IMG/VR virus record: IMGVR_UViG_3300042363_001100
Span: 1 to 35,409 of that record
Strand: one strand, 5' to 3'
DNA from: a virus
Taxonomy: Duplodnaviria; Caudoviricetes
Length of the DNA stretch: 35,409 nt
Position 1 is the stretch's first letter, and each line of letters starts with the position of its first letter. The position numbers and the translations under genes were made by a program. The notes beneath the pieces are model-generated. The model worked only from the letters and a program-made list of their open reading frames with translations, was not told where the DNA came from and did no database searches. Positions 21,621-29,056 of the stretch are shown in pieces.

Positions 21621-22484
21621 TTATTTATCCTTTTTGCCATAATTTTTCTTTCGGCTTGAGTTATCTGCCGTTGCTGTAATTCCAAGGCTACCAATATGAG
21701 CTAAAGATCCTTTAAAAATATAAGAACCGATATGCTGTAGTTGCATCCACGGGCATGTCCAGATTTGCATTCCAGCTTGACGAGCTTTCTTACAGAAGAA
21801 ATAATCTTCTGATAGATAACGTTTAGTTTCTGGGTCGATAATGCAATCAAAATAGGCGTGAATTTCACGACTACCGTCAAATTGTTCAGTACGAACATGA
21901 TCTGGTTTGTAGCTTAGTTCAGGGTAAGCTGCTGCAAATTTCTCAAACGTTGCTCTTGGGATAAGCATAAAGCCAGTTCCACCTTCTCCAATTTCTAATG
22001 GCTCGCTAATGTTAAATGAGCTTACTCTATTAACAGGATTAAAAACATAATCAGCAGTGTATTGTTCTAAATCAAATGGATTTTCGTCACCCTTACCAGC
22101 CGCTGCAGCCTTTTGAACTTTTTCCCAAGCAATAGTTTTCTTAGGATAAAGACCAGTTACAATGTTATACTTTTCTGGATCTGAGATTTGTACTGCAAGC
22201 AAACCAAGAACATCACGAGGATTAAATCCGATGTCTGCATCAATAAACAAAAGATGCGTACAATCTGATCTAAGGAATTCGTCTGCAATATAGTTACGAG
22301 CTCGTTGAATCAAACTCTCATTAAACAGATAATAGAAATGAATACCAATTCCATTTGCTGCACACATCGTAGCTAAATCTACAGATGCCTTTGTATATGA
22401 ACCTGTACACTGGGCTCCATACATTGGCGTACCTACAAAGATTTTATGTTTTCTAATTTCTTCAACTGATGTTTGAATTTTCAT
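21621..22484 (-). CDS. GT-A fold glycosyltransferase-like protein
   Basis: IFVGTPMY, ESLIQRARN, HLLFIDADI (DxD), GTGFMLI, YLSEDYFFC, LQHIG. Confidence 0.8.
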   Translation of the reverse strand: MKIQTSVEEIRKHKIFVGTPMYGAQCTGSYTKASVDLATMCAANGIGIHFYYLFNESLIQRARNYIADEFLRSDCTHLLFIDADIGFNPRDVLGLLAVQISDPEKYNIVTGLYPKKTIAWEKVQKAAAAGKGDENPFDLEQYTADYVFNPVNRVSSFNISEPLEIGEGGTGFMLIPRATFEKFAAAYPELSYKPDHVRTEQFDGSREIHAYFDCIIDPETKRYLSEDYFFCKKARQAGMQIWTCPWMQLQHIGSYIFKGSLAHIGSLGITATADNSSRKKNYGKKDK

Positions 22485-23122
22485 ATTTCAATTTGCTCCA
22501 AATCGTTTTCTGCTCTTACAATAGTTTGTAGTCGCAGAATATCTGCTGCAACATCATGTTTACTATTATGCTTACTGAAGTTTTGTTCCCATTTTTGTAA
22601 ATTGGATACGGGAACAAATCCATTGCCACCGGGTGTATTGAAATCAAATTTTGCATCAATGAAGGTGCGAGTATCTCTTACAGCCCAGTATTTTAAGTGC
22701 TCGCCAAGCAAAGAAGTTTTGTTTGCGTTTTGTGCTATTCGATCTAGAATAACTGGATCAAAAGAATTTGATCGTGACCACCAGTAATCTACTTTACCAG
22801 CAGCTCGCAAATAATCAATTAGCTTTTCCATAAATTGACTTGCTGTTAAATCATCTGCAGACGGCTTAAGATTTTTTCTTAGTTCTGCTGGCTGATCTAA
22901 CCACCATTGTAAGTCACGCTGGTTATATTTGCAGCCATGATTAATCATTTGATCTTTGATATCAAACTTAGCTTGCTGCATATTATGCACTAACTCTTTA
23001 AAGGAGTAAGGATTTTCTGTAAATCGTTCCCATTGAAACGTAATATAAGCACAATCAATAGCAGGAATCTCGCGAGAGCATTGTCCAATTGTTTCAAAAT
23101 CAATAATAAAATGTGTACTCAT
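22481..23122 (-). CDS. dexA: DexA-like 3'-5' exonuclease (DEDDh)
   Basis: HFIIDFETIGQ, WWSRSNSFDPVIL, VRDTRTFID, HNSKHDVAADILRLQ match the T4 DexA pattern. Confidence 0.85.
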   Translation of the reverse strand: MSTHFIIDFETIGQCSREIPAIDCAYITFQWERFTENPYSFKELVHNMQQAKFDIKDQMINHGCKYNQRDLQWWLDQPAELRKNLKPSADDLTASQFMEKLIDYLRAAGKVDYWWSRSNSFDPVILDRIAQNANKTSLLGEHLKYWAVRDTRTFIDAKFDFNTPGGNGFVPVSNLQKWEQNFSKHNSKHDVAADILRLQTIVRAENDLEQIEI

Positions 23123-24327
23123 CCGAAAAATGCCTCCAACGTATCAACCTTTGTTTCATATTCCATCTTCTTAGTACCATTATACTGCACAATGTAGTCT
23201 GTGTCAACCATTATTCTTTCGCCTTTTAACACAGCAAGAACTTCTGATGCCATGTCTGTTGCAGTTTGAACTGGAACGTTTTGGCATATGTGATTAGCTA
23301 CTTTAGGATTAGCATCAACTAATTCAAAGTCTTCTGGCAAACCCATAATTGACATGGCTTCACGATAGTTAATGAATCTGTCTTCGTCAGGATGCGTAAG
23401 CATTATAGGATAATGCCCAACGAATGCACCAATACGATCTTTTGGAATGATAACACCGCGGCGCATAATGCTTCCACCACCAGCAAGCTTCTCATTCTTG
23501 TACAAACATTTTTCTACTTCTCTTTCAAATCCGTTTTCTTGCATCCATTTTGCTACTTGCAAATACGTATGTCCTGCACGTTCAATATAAGAAAAAGCAT
23601 CTATTCCGCGCGCCGATGTAGGATCAATCGCAGCAGCATGTTCTTTGTGACTAATGCCACCATGAATCACTTCAAGAATATATTTGTAATACGGATTATC
23701 GGAAGGTTTTTTATTGCAAATTGGTTCTGTTTGAAAAGTAGTTTTTACATTACGAATCAATTCTTCAATTGGTGTATATTCACGTTCAAAGTAATTAAAG
23801 ATTGGAACTCGTGTTCCTTGCCAGAAGAAATAGAATGATCGTTCACGAACTTGAGGTACACCATGCAACAATGATTTAGTACGATACACACTCATAGTGT
23901 AACCGTTATCTTTACCAATTTGCTTCATTTCATTACGAATTTTTGAACCAATCTTACCGGCAAATCCTGGAGCGTTTTCACCCCAAAATACTTTTGGCTT
24001 GTAGTCACCAAGAATATATCCAGCAGTTTCTGTTAGCCATTTATTGTTTGCATTATCATCGCCATAACCATGAGACATCATAGACAATCCCGCGCACGGG
24101 CATACGGATGCAACCACATCTGCTCGTTCATTAGCAGGCGGAGACATACCTTTATCTAGTACGTAGTAGGGAACTTCGTTTTTGTAATAGTTTACAATAT
24201 GTTTGTCATTAGCAGCAAAAGCTTCATATGACATAAGATGCATTGGCGGTTTTCCAAAAGCTTTATGTGAAGCAATTGTTTCTCCACCTATTAGTGGTAC
24301 AATACTTGCGTGGGTAATATCATTCAT
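23119..24327 (-). CDS. Divergent DNA cytosine-C5 methyltransferase-like protein
   Basis: Catalytic PC (CPCAGLS), ENAPG (motif VI), PQVRERSFY (motif VIII), REAMSIMGLPEDF (IX), QNVPV (X). Motif I is atypical (IVPLIGG). Confidence 0.8.
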   Translation of the reverse strand: MNDITHASIVPLIGGETIASHKAFGKPPMHLMSYEAFAANDKHIVNYYKNEVPYYVLDKGMSPPANERADVVASVCPCAGLSMMSHGYGDDNANNKWLTETAGYILGDYKPKVFWGENAPGFAGKIGSKIRNEMKQIGKDNGYTMSVYRTKSLLHGVPQVRERSFYFFWQGTRVPIFNYFEREYTPIEELIRNVKTTFQTEPICNKKPSDNPYYKYILEVIHGGISHKEHAAAIDPTSARGIDAFSYIERAGHTYLQVAKWMQENGFEREVEKCLYKNEKLAGGGSIMRRGVIIPKDRIGAFVGHYPIMLTHPDEDRFINYREAMSIMGLPEDFELVDANPKVANHICQNVPVQTATDMASEVLAVLKGERIMVDTDYIVQYNGTKKMEYETKVDTLEAFFG

Positions 24328-25334
24328 GCCAAAAATTTCCTTACTGTAGACAATGCCGAATTAATAGCTTGGTGCATATCTAAATATGCATACAAACCAC
24401 AGCGACCGATAAAGGTCATATTCTCCGGCTGTTCATTTTTATATTTTTCATATAGCTCACGGTTTTTACCATCACGATCTTTTACTGGGTAATAACGTTC
24501 AAAGTTATTATCGACATAGTCACAAGGCTGTTCAAACGTGAGCGTCGTGTTATATTTATTGTCTCCGTGATTAGGAATATTCTTCCACTCAGTAACTCGT
24601 GTCTTTGGACCATTATGAGTGAAGTTAACAGTAGCAGTTGGTAATGCTTTGCCAATTGGCAACGTTATTGTTTCAAACTTTATCGAACGATAAGGAAGAG
24701 GACCATGCTTAAAATCGAAATATTGATCGATTGGCATAGAGTTAAAAACGTGGTCAAAGTGAGCAACATTTTTTTCAAAGTTTGGTTCATACTTGGTGTT
24801 TAACTTTACAGTAATGTTTTCGTGATGTAGAATGTTTTCAACTAGTTTAGTATAACCGTCTGTAGGCATGTATTGAAACTCGTCATCAGGAAAATAGAAT
24901 TCGTTATTGTCATCACGAATTGGAACTCTATTAATAATTTCTGGGTTTAGTTCGTCAAGTTCTACGCCCCACATCTTTTTAGTATATGGTCTAAAGAAAA
25001 TATCAAGAACGTTTTCTTCGCCAACCATATTTTTAGTTTCGCGGTTAACTGGAAGAGTGGCAAATCTACCATCTTCTAGTTGAGCTTTTACTTTATGCTT
25101 ATACGGAATCCATTTAGTGAACTTGCTAAGCCACTCGAACACTGCCTTATTATTTGTATGAAACAAATGAGGACCGTATTTGTGTACTCGAATACCATAT
25201 TCATTAATGTAATCATACGCATTACCAGCAACATGATCACGAGATTCTATTACCCATACTTTGTGTCCGGCTTCAGCAAGTTCACGAGCAATAACTGCGC
25301 CGGAAAAGCCAGCACCTACTACTAAGTAATTCAT
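24324..25334 (-). CDS. glf: UDP-galactopyranose mutase
   Basis: VVGAGFSG FAD motif, GNAYD, VHKYGPHLFHT, YTKKMWG, LPYRSI, TRVTEWK, RYYPV, GRCGLYAYLDMHQAI. Confidence 0.95.
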   Translation of the reverse strand: MNYLVVGAGFSGAVIARELAEAGHKVWVIESRDHVAGNAYDYINEYGIRVHKYGPHLFHTNNKAVFEWLSKFTKWIPYKHKVKAQLEDGRFATLPVNRETKNMVGEENVLDIFFRPYTKKMWGVELDELNPEIINRVPIRDDNNEFYFPDDEFQYMPTDGYTKLVENILHHENITVKLNTKYEPNFEKNVAHFDHVFNSMPIDQYFDFKHGPLPYRSIKFETITLPIGKALPTATVNFTHNGPKTRVTEWKNIPNHGDNKYNTTLTFEQPCDYVDNNFERYYPVKDRDGKNRELYEKYKNEQPENMTFIGRCGLYAYLDMHQAINSALSTVRKFLA

Positions 25335-26431
25335 GCTGAAAGAACCTTTGCAATTTCTGCTTGTTGAACCTTTTTGTCAAGAGGATGATTAGCATACAAA
25401 GCGTCACGTTGTGCTTTAGCAGTTGCAACAAGTTGTTCATCACTCATTGCTTCAATATCTGCTACCTTAAGACTAGCAAGAGCTTCATCTTTATAGTACA
25501 CCATCATTTCAGGTTTATCACCAATAAGAATAGAACCAGCGTCTGCAACTTGCAAAGGACGAGCGCGCCACCAACCTGAACCAGCATGGAAATAACCCGG
25601 CATCAAGCAACCCCATTGCGATTCAAACACTTTTACCATTTCTGGTTCAGTCTTACGTTCTGATTTATACTTACCGCGTTTAGCACCAAAGTAAACAATT
25701 GGCCACTGCCAACCTTCTGGTTGTTGAAGCTTCAACCACTTACGGGTCTTTTCTTGTACCAAAGAAGCAAAGTTCCATTTCTTTTCTTTTACTGGAGCAG
25801 AATCAAAGAAGCTACCAAGACCAATAACATCTGTTCCATAACCATTGTCAGCACGACGATTCAAGTGATAAGGATTAGGATTGTATTGATATACATTTTC
25901 TTTTTTCCAACCGAGGTCTAGCAAATCAAGATTGCCACCAGCAAATGCACTTACGAGAAGACGATTGTTTTTGCTTGTGATAATTTTACAAGCTTCAATG
26001 TAGTCATCTTTATAAGACATGACTGTTGCTTTATCTTCTTCACCCTGCCAAAGATCAAAGAGGTAATCACGGAAAATACCTGGGTCGTTTTCTTCCATTT
26101 TTTCTTGGTATGTTTGAATAGCACCAAAGATTTGATTGAATTGCCAATCGTCAAATGCGATGATACAATCTGGTCTTGCTTTAACAGCGTACAAACCAGC
26201 CCAAATGTATTGGCAAAATGCTTGAATGCTGTGGATGTAAACGATAACATCGTCATAACCAGAGAGGTCTTCACCAAGTTTTACTGGTCGTTGTTCAACC
26301 TCGTAACCCATATCTTCAAGACAGCGAATAAGAGAATAGTGCGATGGAACAACTTGCAATTGCTGATTAACATAAAAGTCTCTAGCGCATTGCAACTTAT
26401 TCATGCCAGTAATGAGGATTTTTTTAGACAT
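25331..26431 (-). CDS. GT-B glycosyltransferase, possibly related to T4 DNA beta-glucosyltransferase
   Basis: 366 aa; N-terminal KKILITG strand; C-terminal GSGWWRARPLQVADAGSILIG resembles the GT-B nucleotide-sugar-binding segment; downstream of the gp42-like gene. Homology judged by eye. Confidence 0.6.
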   Translation of the reverse strand: MSKKILITGMNKLQCARDFYVNQQLQVVPSHYSLIRCLEDMGYEVEQRPVKLGEDLSGYDDVIVYIHSIQAFCQYIWAGLYAVKARPDCIIAFDDWQFNQIFGAIQTYQEKMEENDPGIFRDYLFDLWQGEEDKATVMSYKDDYIEACKIITSKNNRLLVSAFAGGNLDLLDLGWKKENVYQYNPNPYHLNRRADNGYGTDVIGLGSFFDSAPVKEKKWNFASLVQEKTRKWLKLQQPEGWQWPIVYFGAKRGKYKSERKTEPEMVKVFESQWGCLMPGYFHAGSGWWRARPLQVADAGSILIGDKPEMMVYYKDEALASLKVADIEAMSDEQLVATAKAQRDALYANHPLDKKVQQAEIAKVLSA

Positions 26432-26470
26432 ATTTCACCTTTTTCATAATAATAGTTGAGAGTATAAAGT

Positions 26471-26478
26471 TATTTATG
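26471..26478 (-). promoter_or_regulatory. Possible late-type promoter CATAAATA for the glycosylation operon
   Basis: One mismatch to TATAAATA, about 40 bp upstream of the GT-B start. Confidence 0.45.
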
Positions 26479-26502
26479 ACTTCTCTACAAGCCGATGTTA
26501 TA

Positions 26503-26955
26503 TTATACACCTAATATTGTAATTTGTACACCGCTCTCTGCAAACATAGGAGCAGATTCTTGTTCCCAAACTGCTTGCCAATTAGCTTTATTAGTCTTTA
26601 TAGTAGGAATTACGACTCGTTTAACGCCTGCTTGTATAACACATTTCGCGCAAGAAGAACAAACAGGCAAACCATAAACATACAACGTAGAGTCTTTAAG
26701 ACTTACACCAGAATACAACGCGTTCATAAGAGCGTTCATTTCAGCATGAATAATACGAGAGTATTTTTCTTCTTTATTATTCAGACGTTCTTCGGTATCT
26801 GCAATACCTTTTGGAAAGCCATTATAACCAGTAGCAAGAATTCTACGCTCGTCATTAACTACAACTGCACCAATTTGACTAGATGGATCTTTACTCCAAG
26901 TAGAAATGACACGAGCCATTTCCATAAAACGATTATCCCATTTTGTGGTATTCAT
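26503..26955 (-). CDS. cd: dCMP deaminase
   Basis: WSKDPS, TGYNGFP, IHAEMNA, PVCSSC zinc motif. Confidence 0.93.
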   Translation of the reverse strand: MNTTKWDNRFMEMARVISTWSKDPSSQIGAVVVNDERRILATGYNGFPKGIADTEERLNNKEEKYSRIIHAEMNALMNALYSGVSLKDSTLYVYGLPVCSSCAKCVIQAGVKRVVIPTIKTNKANWQAVWEQESAPMFAESGVQITILGV

Positions 26956-27383
26956 TTTTGCAATTCATTCCAGTTTTGTTTGATTGCTCTTGCATCTTCT
27001 AACGCGTTGTGTAGAATAGCACTAGTCTTAGAACTTAATTCTCGATTAATTTCCATTGTTAGTTTAGGTGGTGTGTTAATACATACACCTGGCGCAGTGA
27101 TAAGCGACATGCAAAAGTATTTAATATCATCAGGCCAATCAGCAACGAGATGAACTTCTTTATATTGGTTAATAAATTTCCACAATTTAGCTTGAAAAAT
27201 ATCTTTGCTAACTGGGTCTTTATTTAAAAATGGCACTACATTAACCGCTACCCAATTTTCGTATGCCCAATCTTTGCTAAGATTTAAGACCTCATAAAAC
27301 TCTTGGCCATCATCAGCAACTAGAGCCATAGAGATAAGATCACCACCAAAGCCGTTAAATTCGCAATCAATAAAAATATTCAT
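26952..27383 (-). CDS. DEDDh 3'-5' exonuclease, Rv2179c-like
   Basis: IFIDCEFNG..LISMALV..ADWPDD..HNALEDARAI. Confidence 0.8.
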   Translation of the reverse strand: MNIFIDCEFNGFGGDLISMALVADDGQEFYEVLNLSKDWAYENWVAVNVVPFLNKDPVSKDIFQAKLWKFINQYKEVHLVADWPDDIKYFCMSLITAPGVCINTPPKLTMEINRELSSKTSAILHNALEDARAIKQNWNELQK

Positions 27384-27385
27384 AA

Positions 27386-28090
27386 TTATTTTACTAAGTT
27401 AAAGTGTCGTTCGTACACATGCAAATTCATAACTTGCCAGTGCAAATCGCCACATGTCAAAAGAACATCGTTACCAAATGTCTCAGCAACGTGTGTATTT
27501 TCTTCATTATAACGTTGGACCATTTCTTGCATTAGATATCGTGCCCAAGCATAATCATTTTTGTAACCAAATACTGCATCGTTAGAACGCATTTGAGATA
27601 CCATATGCAGCTTGTTATCGCGAATATACACGGTTTGCGCATTAGTACAAATGAAGTCGTTCTTACCATTTTCATTATACTCAACCCAGATTGAAGGGCG
27701 ATTATAAATCATTTGAGCACGCCGAGAGTCTGGGTTGCAAAGCAACTCTGCTAGAGCATTCTCAAATTGATTAGAGTACTTATCTGAATAAACGATAGTA
27801 CCGTAATTAGAATTGATTTCGCCGTATTGATTTGCAGAATATTTCCAAGCAGCAGGTGACATACCATAGATTTCACCTAGCGTATTAATATTAGTTGATT
27901 GACTTTTGTACCATTTTAATTCGGCATCAACATAAGCTTGATTTACTTCACCAAAAATTGCAGGTTCATCTGCAATAAATGAAGCACCTATAATCTCAAT
28001 TGTTTTAGCACCTGAACGATCAACAGTAAAGCGTTCTGCTGCAAGTTCATCAATAAAATATTTGCGGATATTATTCACATTCATTATCAT
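27386..28090 (-). CDS. gp42: dCMP hydroxymethylase-like enzyme (T4 gp42 / thymidylate synthase superfamily)
   Basis: GEINSNYG, DSRRAQMIYNRPS, DFICTN (catalytic Cys), MRSNDAVFGYKNDYAW (Asp at the dCMP-specificity position), LHVYERHF. Start trimmed to the ATG at 28090; 28084 is an alternative. Confidence 0.9.
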   Translation of the reverse strand: MIMNVNNIRKYFIDELAAERFTVDRSGAKTIEIIGASFIADEPAIFGEVNQAYVDAELKWYKSQSTNINTLGEIYGMSPAAWKYSANQYGEINSNYGTIVYSDKYSNQFENALAELLCNPDSRRAQMIYNRPSIWVEYNENGKNDFICTNAQTVYIRDNKLHMVSQMRSNDAVFGYKNDYAWARYLMQEMVQRYNEENTHVAETFGNDVLLTCGDLHWQVMNLHVYERHFNLVK

Positions 28091-28193
28091 ATTCTTCGCC
28101 TTTGTATTCTTCAAGCATATCAATTAGCTTTAGCAAAAAAGCTTGGTCTTTACTGTTATCAGTATCTAGTTCTAACTCTAGTTTAATTTTCAT
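28071..28193 (-). CDS. 40-aa small acidic protein (not in the ORF track)
   Basis: Manual translation MKIKLELELDTDNSKDQAFLLKLIDMLEEYKGEEYDNECE; bridges and overlaps both neighbours. Confidence 0.6.
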   Translation of the reverse strand: MKIKLELELDTDNSKDQAFLLKLIDMLEEYKGEEYDNECE

Positions 28194-28509
28194 CTATTAG
28201 ATCTTTTCTAAAACGGTCATCAACGGGTGCAGTAGCTTCTGCTTGACACACTGTTAGAATCATTAGCTGGGTCATTGCATGGTGCAAGTGTGGCAAACCG
28301 CTTTCAGGATCAATGTCTTCACCGTCATTCCAAGCAAGAAGATGACGCTGAATAGATGCGTAATGTCGTGACACTGGGAACTTGTTAAGATCGCGGCGCC
28401 AGTTGTTTTCGCCATATTTCTTTGCGCCAAAAGCAAAAACTTCAGCACACGCGATGATGGCTGAAGATGGCACAAGATTAATTGGTGGTTTACCTGTATC
28501 AAATTTCAT
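28183..28509 (-). CDS. DUF5664 / dATP-dGTP diphosphohydrolase-family protein
   Basis: KFDTGKP..LVP..VFAFGAKKYGENNWR..RHLLAW..GEDIDPESGLPHLHHA. Confidence 0.88.
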   Translation of the reverse strand: MKFDTGKPPINLVPSSAIIACAEVFAFGAKKYGENNWRRDLNKFPVSRHYASIQRHLLAWNDGEDIDPESGLPHLHHAMTQLMILTVCQAEATAPVDDRFRKDLIDEN

Positions 28510-29056
28510 TAGTGGCTCCTAATAGACTTATATAATTCTTATCTCTAGTATGATTATAATACATTTGTCCTTTATTGTAAACAGATTCTTGCATATAATT
28601 TTTAAAATTCTTACCAACTTTTGTAATAAACATCCAGTGAACTTCATAAAGATTTTCACCTAAGATTTTATAGTCACCTACAATAAAGTAGTCTACCAAA
28701 TCAATATTCTTTAAGAAAGTTTTGACATGGTTAGGATCAGTGTAAGAATACCATTTAGTTCTATCGTCTGATAAGAACTTTTTGCGCTTGATTTCAGCTT
28801 TATGCTCATCCCACAATACGTCCCATGCATATGAATCTGGATCCATTACGTTAAACTTCTTAGGATTTTTTGTTGCGCCTTGATGACACAATGCAAATTC
28901 TAGAATAGAGCCAGCCTTAGAAGCAGCAAAACACCGCTCAAAAGAACGGCCTCTGCTTCTTACTGGGCAATTACTAATTTCTTGCGCTTGTATTTTAAGA
29001 GATTCTATTTCTTCGTCAGTCATAGAATATATGATTGGCCGCGGCAACTTGATCAT
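28499..29056 (-). CDS. Hypothetical protein, possible PD-(D/E)xK-like fold
   Basis: 185-aa ORF in the operon. E...WDV...AEIK is only weakly reminiscent of a nuclease motif. Confidence 0.7.
   Translation of the reverse strand: MIKLPRPIIYSMTDEEIESLKIQAQEISNCPVRSRGRSFERCFAASKAGSILEFALCHQGATKNPKKFNVMDPDSYAWDVLWDEHKAEIKRKKFLSDDRTKWYSYTDPNHVKTFLKNIDLVDYFIVGDYKILGENLYEVHWMFITKVGKNFKNYMQESVYNKGQMYYNHTRDKNYISLLGATNEI

Follow-up and report, generated by a model that had tools for sequence, protein, structure and literature searches.

The β-glucosyltransferase of phage T4 (BGT) is an inverting enzyme. For Rhizobium phage RL38JI, uridine diphosphate (UDP)-galactofuranose (UDP-Galf) made by the phage has been proposed as a donor for DNA in which the base-proximal sugar is a galactose on 5-hydroxycytosine, the furanose itself being a proposal (available text of PMC13326640). 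The same text gives three diagnostic changes in enzymes of the thymidylate synthase (TS) type: N177D for use of deoxycytidine monophosphate (dCMP), L143D/E where the product is non-methyl, and D169N, which marks 5-hydroxy-dCMP synthases. JGT-like phage GT-A DNA glycosyltransferases carry the motif R...DDD...EDY/F (available text of bioRxiv 10.1101/2023.12.21.572611), and for Aeromonas phage 25 a gene 42 is listed without any known glucosyltransferase (available text of PMC2993671). The stretch analysed here comprised 35.4 kb (36% GC) of sequence from an uncultured, T4-like tailed phage, IMG/VR record IMGVR_UViG_3300042363_001100, hereafter the window. The genes in question lie at 21621-28509 and encode, among others, a gp42-type dCMP hydroxymethylase, a GT-B glycosyltransferase, a UDP-galactopyranose mutase (Glf), a C5-cytosine-methyltransferase (C5-MTase)-like protein, a DexA-like exonuclease and a GT-A-type protein. 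An initial annotation, made from the sequence alone, had read them as one pathway placing a furanose sugar on a modified cytosine.

We take gp42, the GT-B transferase and Glf to be a real, conserved cytosine-glycosylation set whose product would be β-galactofuranosyl-5-hydroxymethylcytosine (Galf-hmC), and assign this reading a probability of about 0.65. In this scheme gp42 would make 5-hydroxymethyl-dCMP, which would then be built into phage DNA. Glf would convert UDP-galactopyranose (UDP-Galp) to UDP-Galf, and the BGT-fold enzyme would move galactofuranose (Galf) onto the hydroxymethyl group. The linkage would be β because BGT inverts, giving β-D-Galf-hmC, and the modified base would likely block host nucleases, much as the sugar coat of T4 DNA protects that phage from them.

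The residues of gp42 point to 5-hydroxymethylcytosine (hmC) as the base handle. The window protein is homologous to T4 gp42 over its full length, keeps the equivalents of C148, D179 and D145 and belongs to the T4 gp42 type; phage HY126-type entries 9iqu/9iqc were matched at an expected value (E) of 7e-6 only, versus 2.3e-61 for the T4 enzyme. It reads RSND in the D169 region, and ThyA position 169 is Asp in 52/52 aligned homologues; RL38J1 gp216 and the synthase of Providencia phage PSTRCR_121 read RSQN there. With Asp at all three diagnostic positions, the handle is most likely hmC. The initial annotation had allowed either hmC or 5-hydroxycytosine; the former stands, and the latter was rejected as unlikely on the retained D169, judged against the available text of PMC13326640. 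The likely start of gp42 is ATG 28090 or 28084, not TTG 28123. A PF12851 (TET) search of 14 records gave matches in two, both controls, and none in G001 (91% complete) or G014 (100% complete).

A model of the GT-B transferase was built from 90 sequences (predicted local distance difference test score 94). Foldseek placed T4 BGT at ranks 1-3 (rank 1, 1qkj; E 7.5e-8; template modelling score 0.59), and VIA also ranked a BGT chain first (1c3j; Z 17.1; root-mean-square deviation 3.6; 293 residues aligned). The initial description of this protein as BGT-like was thus upheld, T4 BGT being the top solved chain in two programs. Residues D94, D95 and W96 and a GWWRxR segment are invariant; D94/D95, candidate equivalents of the catalytic D100 of BGT, lie at a matching register. 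The family is widespread, with 673 homologues. Neither of the two original glycosyltransferase labels had a Pfam or NCBIfam match: that of GT-B was confirmed by fold, and that of GT-A holds as far as motifs and an ESM Atlas lead go.

Three IMG/VR scans were anchored on GT-B, GT-A and the C5-MTase-like protein, and the best 80 loci of 350, at least 592 and at least 593 confirmed matches, respectively, were used. IMG/VR loci are redundant, and each denominator below is the number of loci with enough flank. Around GT-B, gp42 was found in 49/50 loci, glf in 48/78 (46 directly adjacent), the C5-MTase-like gene in 59/62, GT-A in 52/54 and dexA in 25/54. Linkage of glf, this transferase and gp42, on which the initial annotation depended, is therefore a conserved feature, the three travelling together across phage genomes.

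Between gp42 and the C5-MTase-like gene lies a slot in which different transferase-plus-donor kits replace one another. Among 145 pooled loci spanning the two genes, 141 held a glycosyltransferase-matching gene (GT-B, AGT-like, TAGT or one of two weakly matched GT-B families) and four an unassigned family. Eight loci first scored as lacking a transferase carry a longer AGT-like gene. The AGT match was to PF11440 (E 2e-79) and the TAGT match to PF20691. Kits comprised GT-B, in some loci with glf and in others not; AGT-like, sometimes joined by HAD/kinase and cytidylyltransferase; nucleotidyltransferase-kinase together with HAD and a further glycosyltransferase; TAGT, epimerase and UDP-glucose dehydrogenase; and inositol-1-phosphate synthase with the unassigned family. 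glf was present in 50 of the 145 loci, always with GT-B and never without it (0/50). Three features of individual slots are recorded separately. One slot (L100:4052-8095) combines inositol-1-phosphate synthase, a HAD-like gene, an HMUDK_hel protein and the unassigned family, possibly an inositol-based cytosine modification. In six loci a FabF-like ketoacyl synthase lies between gp42 and dCMP deaminase (as at L137:2690-3928), and a 121-residue UDG/DUF1643-like open reading frame (ORF) stands just upstream of GT-B in L136, L141 (3286-3651) and L144, recalling the UDG domain of the fusions described below.

GT-B homologues occurred in 38 phage records. glf adjoins GT-B in the Aeromonas phage 25 group, IME13, Erwinia phage FBB1, C48C1 and DSL-LC01. 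The gp42 genes of cultured phages were located with a gp42 protein query; a PF00303 search missed divergent enzymes. In these distant cultured phages the GT-B/glf pair retains a predicted source of hydroxymethyl-pyrimidine. Aeromonas phage 25 and FBB1 carry a D169 gp42 elsewhere in the genome; with GT-B, glf and gp42 all present they gave no PF00145 match, so the C5-MTase-like protein would not be needed for Galf transfer itself. DSL-LC01 has a D177 TS homologue in this role. In phage C48C1 (L001:8580-12027) the genes for a TET/JBP dioxygenase, GT-B and Glf follow one another with overlaps, the dioxygenase directly upstream of GT-B; this record gave neither a gp42 nor a PF00145 match, and the acceptor there may therefore be 5-hydroxymethyluracil, a Galf analogue of base J. 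In Lactobacillus phage ATCCB (L249:5167-8222), consecutive genes encode a dCMP-type TS, a true homologue of BGT (31%) and Glf; here BGT and glf are paired a second time, independently, in a phage that has been cultured. A search of the phage collection for BGT homologues returned 126 records with no Aeromonas among the ten most frequent names, 66 of the 126 falling outside the names listed.

The donor is predicted from Glf and its neighbours. Glf of the window keeps the UDP-galactopyranose mutase motifs GxGxxG, GPHxFH, YTxKxWG, RxPxR, TRxxE, YYP and GR..YxYxDM. A galE-like gene accompanied GT-B and glf in 19/50 loci, as against 0/35 glf-less GT-B loci and one AGT locus; after clustering of gp42 at 90% the contrast was 8/23 versus 0/18. 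The product of this gene is closest to GalE (TIGR01179, E 1e-68, below its cut-off). UDP-glucose dehydrogenase occurred in the slot solely with the TAGT kit and never with glf, and no genes for UDP-arabinopyranose supply (UDP-glucose dehydrogenase, decarboxylase) accompanied glf among the slot loci. The company of galE points to UDP-Galf, by way of UDP-glucose, UDP-Galp and UDP-Galf. The initial annotation had left Galf and L-arabinofuranose open: a furanose on hmC stands as the most likely product, and the arabinose half is less likely than Galf, since galE rather than dehydrogenase and decarboxylase genes comes with glf.

Several observations weigh against this reading. The first concern the transferase itself: no sequence match was found in Pfam (E 0.01), NCBIfam or PDB (phmmer), the hhalign probability against BGT was 3.6%, which makes the kinship one of fold and not of sequence-level membership, and the VIA margin was small (glycogen synthase, Z 16.5; T4 AGT, Z 15.7). 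Galf is mainly a surface sugar and many GT-B folds score near BGT, so virion proteins or host surface glycans might be what GT-B and Glf modify, their position here being due to chance. Phage transferases for capsids and serotype conversion do exist (available text of PMC12619734). Against this, the slot otherwise holds known DNA-transferase families (AGT, TAGT), the GT-B/glf pair accompanies gp42 or TET, and distant GT-Bs are fused to a C5-MTase domain; a protein or glycan target is highly improbable.

Other adverse points concern the tie between GT-B and Galf. glf was missing nearby in 30/78 GT-B loci (about four in ten) and from 35/85 slot loci with GT-B, and was not found elsewhere in two glf-less GT-B records (74% and 61% complete), so the GT-B family is not bound to Galf. 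Glf-less GT-Bs occupy one side of a branch (one change, support 80) in a quick tree whose careful search was unfinished and in which three distant rows sit on long branches. The galE contrast and the residue changes between glf-bearing and glf-less proteins (Q23K, VVP27-29ILN, A290S, P292V, L293Q) consequently amount to one event and are not independent support. Positions 23-29 and 290-293 match by register the donor-side loops of BGT; the changes fit a donor switch and do not prove one. Gordonia phage GMA2 and PSTRCR_121 likewise have GT-B and no glf nearby, and in the latter (L177:5369-11788) a distant GT-B (25%) sits inside an RB69-type D-arabinofuranose (D-Araf) cluster with a D169N synthase. 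Taken as a whole, the family is thus not restricted to Galf, although furanoses may be favoured.

The glf-less GT-Bs leave room for an enzyme that adds a pyranose (glucose or Galp) to hmC while Glf serves a second transferase, for example GT-A, adding an outer Galf. GT-A is present in nearly all GT-B loci and has phage DNA transferase motifs. glf, however, tracks GT-B and not GT-A: glf occurred in six of the 40 GT-A loci (from the best 80) that had 5 kb of upstream sequence, and all six also had GT-B. It is paired directly with GT-B in the Aeromonas, Erwinia and DSL-LC01 loci, and fixed GT-B residues change where it is lost. We regard a pyranose on hmC as unlikely.

Glf too departs from its bacterial counterparts, by a deletion of about 30 residues and a TIGR00031 equivalog score of 289.7 bits, under the cut-off of 303.75. 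Glf-family enzymes accept UDP-L-arabinopyranose, and paralogues for other sugars exist. With the distant GT-B in the D-Araf cluster, these features would suit a Glf that uses UDP-L-arabinopyranose, UDP-N-acetylgalactosamine or a deoxy sugar, giving arabinofuranosyl-hmC (+132) or similar. That the mutase active-site motifs are kept, that the accompanying epimerase is closest to GalE and that UDP-glucose dehydrogenase keeps to the TAGT kit make a furanose other than galactose quite unlikely. Galf-hmC nevertheless faces two further difficulties. The window itself has no galE, and UDP-Galp would come from the host or from an unseen part of the genome. A search of three relatives (91%, 55% and 47% complete) for the T4 gp56 dCTPase gave no homologue, two control genomes being matched, and replacement of cytosine may accordingly be partial.

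The GT-A-type protein has R63, D82 and D84 in 48/48 sequences and E226-D-Y in 47/48. It follows the JGT-like motif and reads DAD, its middle residue differing from DDD. No Pfam match (TAGT included) and no PDB sequence match was found; the ESM Atlas lead was to an Anp1-bearing cluster (32% of members). The gene adjoins gp45 in Sinorhizobium phage phiM12, Cr30 and DLP_6, and lies 1.2 kb (DLP_6) and 5 kb (Cr30) from a TET/JBP gene. Where GT-A loci reached 9 kb upstream (24 of the best 80), gp42 and the C5-MTase-like gene were present in 22, GT-B and glf in one, and neither gp42 nor the C5-MTase-like gene in two. GT-A retains 65-83% identity across loci with five or more unrelated sugar kits and also where gp42 is missing (L111, L121, L133, L134). 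The proposal that all five chained genes form one pathway did not hold, as GT-A and dexA stay beside gp45 in loci without gp42, GT-B and glf. The probable role of GT-A is that of a separate DNA glycosyltransferase, and that of dexA a general nuclease. A disaccharide completed by GT-A was also part of the initial annotation and is unsupported, nothing tying GT-A to Galf. Galf-hmC could still form as proposed and then be extended by GT-A, a variant that overlaps our preferred reading and draws on the transferase-like motifs and the TET/JBP neighbours. Conservation beside unrelated kits and without gp42 fits poorly with a Galf-specific acceptor, and GT-A has its own promoter-like site ahead of it; we consider the extension doubtful.

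The C5-MTase-like gene was likewise detached from the furanose pathway to which it had been assigned, as it tracks gp42 whichever sugar kit is present, and not glf. Among the best 80 loci anchored on it, gp42 lay upstream in 31/31 with 7 kb upstream, and GT-B with glf in eight. The fold is that of solved C5-MTases (Z 22-24), and the catalytic C78, E117 and R161/R163 (PC, EN and RxR motifs) are invariant (57/57). The cofactor motifs are rewritten, equally invariantly (57/57): IVPLIGG, SY and CQNV replace FxGxG, the motif II Glu and N304/motif X Asn, by comparison with the canonical S-adenosylmethionine (SAM) motifs, described in part in PMC12783734. The best PDB sequence match of the profile was the phage enzyme CmoX (8yf3; PMC12783734; E 1.5e-7), which shares a C5-MTase fold with a changed cofactor. 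R350 of CmoX is Q349 here, SPPC is VCPC, and the cofactor-binding Phe and Glu are replaced; identity as a CmoX-type carboxymethyltransferase was rejected on VCPC and Q349 in 57/57.

The C-terminal tail matches L-x-x-F-hydrophobic in 53/57 sequences and resembles SLDFLFG of T4 gp43, whose tail binds the clamp; the same pattern occurs in a GT-B loop in 32/90 sequences against 1/1800 background windows. The most likely target of the protein, held on the gp45 clamp, is hmC DNA that has just been made, and we give even chances to its chemistry proceeding without SAM. An ordinary SAM-dependent methylase marking the cytosine left in a partly hmC genome is a possible alternative of lower probability, in line with the intact catalytic residues and with gp56 not being found in the three relatives. 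The homologue in S-TIM5 is the sole PF00145 match in a genome in which methylated purine-C sites are reportedly present. Set against this are the loss of FxGxG, of the motif II Glu and at the N304 position in every sequence; the presence of the gene together with gp42 and gp56 in XG4, where little cytosine should remain; and a D177 TS homologue in all five distant carriers checked (S-TIM5, phage G, XG4, GMA2 and DSL-LC01). ThyX was also found in four of the five distant-carrier genomes searched. In S-TIM5 the annotated TS (L086:5781-6617) has Asp at ThyA 177, and ThyX is also in the genome; the TS may thus modify dCMP, which bears on the reported methylation.

Distant GT-B members are fused behind a C5-MTase domain in 14 of 26 long hits scanned (25 from a profile search and one from the set of 673 homologues), three of them with a UDG domain; an IMG/VR search for GT-B/C5-MTase fusion loci found none. 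In all 11 aligned fusions (P0292, P0294, P0300, P0305, P0310, P0319, P0325, P0331, P0357, P0363, P0369) the position of CmoX R350 is Arg, or Lys in DSL-LC01 and GMA2, so that these proteins may use carboxy-SAM. A broader and rather unlikely scheme would have the clamp-bound enzyme edit hmC through its catalytic Cys without SAM, the hydroxymethyl group being removed or exchanged. Together with β-Galf-hmC from swappable kits this would pattern modification along the genome, and fusion to GT-B would make one DNA-editing unit.

The five chained ORFs (GT-B, glf, C5-MTase-like, dexA, GT-A) were found at the positions originally given, all on the minus strand, with ATGA at each junction (25331-34, 24324-27, 23119-22, 22481-84). 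Overlaps of the same type recur at 10548-51, 18132-35, 26952-55, 32705-08 and 33622-25 and therefore indicate tight packing rather than a shared pathway. Pfam matches bore out the glf, C5-MTase, exonuclease, dCMP deaminase and thymidylate-synthase-family labels; the DUF5664 label corresponds to the dATP/dGTP diphosphohydrolase family PF18909, and gp45, gp44 and gp62 lie downstream as claimed. DUF5664 is an inconstant neighbour, near GT-B in 3/45 loci with 5 kb upstream. The 143-residue exonuclease-like ORF between gp42 and the deaminase, absent from the initial annotation, was seen outside the window solely in the identical locus L004 and is not conserved in the slot. The window also holds T4-like baseplate genes, regA, dUTPase and Hsp20, and both its GT-A and the order GT-A, gp45, gp44, gp62, regA, dut resemble those of phiM12, Cr30 and DLP_6. 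On the minus strand at 19-31.5 kb there are five perfect sigma-70 consensus sites (total matches 56 versus 43 in shuffles, by consensus only), one in the end of the C5-MTase-like gene and one ahead of gp45. Coordinates are collected in Table 1.

Table 1. Features of the window discussed in the text, in order of position.
Feature	Position	Strand	Basis
GT-A-type protein, fixed gp45 neighbour with or without gp42/glf	21621..22484	-	R..DxD..EDY motifs
DexA-like exonuclease	22481..23122	-	PF16473 E 4.9e-14, phrog_255; in 25/54 GT-B loci
C5-cytosine-methyltransferase-fold protein	23119..24327	-	PF00145 E 1.3e-18; C-terminal LEAFFG
TTGACA-17-TATAAT perfect match, inside C5-MTase-like 3' end, upstream of dexA and GT-A	23179..23207	-	consensus match only
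UDP-galactopyranose mutase (Glf)	24324..25334	-	PF03275 E 9.5e-55 (185.9 bits vs 26.3); PDB 3hdq E 1.3e-76
GT-B glycosyltransferase, 366 residues, T4 BGT fold, predicted UDP-Galf:hmC-DNA transferase	25331..26431	-	fold, invariant residues
dCMP deaminase	26503..26955	-	PF00383 E 4.4e-22
3'-5' exonuclease-like ORF, 143 residues	26952..27383	-	PF16473 E 0.0012, phrog_2259 E 2.3e-34
gp42-type dCMP hydroxymethylase	27386..28090	-	phmmer 1b49 E 2.3e-61; PF00303; motifs DFICTN and RSNDAVFGYKND as in T4
dATP/dGTP diphosphohydrolase family (DUF5664), candidate dCTP remover	28183..28509	-	PF18909 E 7.8e-30
DenB (endonuclease IV)-like ORF, possible dC-DNA nuclease, weak match	28499..29056	-	phrog_1360 E 1.5e-5

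Elsewhere in the window, a 40-codon ORF at 28071-28193 (minus strand) overlaps the diphosphohydrolase gene at its end and gp42 at its start. The segment 31505-34878 is lower in GC (29-33%); it includes a weak QueC-like match and two genes resembling 2OG-Fe(II) oxygenases. GpC is over-represented in the whole window, its rho of 1.35 ranking first among the 21 sequences compared; neither dinucleotide nor palindrome counts clearly indicated base modification.

If Galf-hmC is indeed made, it would be a new sugar-base combination in phage DNA chemistry, produced by a widespread family, and would account for the gene 42 of Aeromonas phage 25, filling the gap left in the available text of PMC2993671. 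Its mass equals that of glucosyl-hmC, so that routine liquid chromatography-mass spectrometry would have missed it. It would predict escape from defences tuned to glucosyl-hmC and yield a new hmC-labelling enzyme, and the prediction is testable in cultured phages. The slot is a case of sugar-kit exchange at a single locus, next to a C5-MTase-like partner that stays fixed and is itself a question of enzymology. In open PMC and bioRxiv text, which leaves subscription papers largely outside, phage Glf was tied to DNA modification solely in PMC13326640 and Galf on hmC did not appear; the main text of bioRxiv 10.1101/2023.12.21.572611 contains neither "mutase" nor "furanos-". Of the novelty considered in the initial annotation, Galf on hmC thus remains, no report having been found, whereas a phage glf feeding Galf to DNA had already been proposed for RL38JI.

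Among the known systems, the window shares with T4 an orthologous hydroxymethylase (46% identity), a dCMP deaminase, a DenB-like gene and a BGT-fold transferase beside gene 42. It differs in that its GT-B is 13-14% identical to BGT and undetectable by sequence, that the phage brings its own donor enzyme (glf, often with galE in relatives), that no gp56 homologue was found in the three relatives and that C5-MTase-like and GT-A genes are added. With RL38JI and the Pootjesviridae it shares a phage UDP-galactopyranose mutase (34% identity to the window Glf), proposed there for the first sugar on a modified cytosine. RL38JI, however, has a D169N 5-hydroxy-dCMP synthase where the window keeps D169, its proposed galactosyltransferase gp215 is unlike GT-B (hhalign 0.4%), and about 60 kb separate its glf from the transferase gene, whereas the two overlap in the window. 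RB69 and DLP3 resemble the window in making a furanose donor that GT-B enzymes place on DNA cytosine, but according to the available text of PMC13326640 their D-Araf comes from an isomerase, phosphatase and nucleotidyltransferase-kinase route, without a mutase, and is carried on 5-hydroxycytosine. The 5mYOX clusters, in the available text of bioRxiv 10.1101/2023.12.21.572611, likewise hold GT-A and GT-B enzymes that depend on a donor enzyme encoded nearby for adding diverse sugars to hmC, and their GT-A motifs match those found here; their hmC, by contrast, is made after replication by C5-MTase and TET enzymes.

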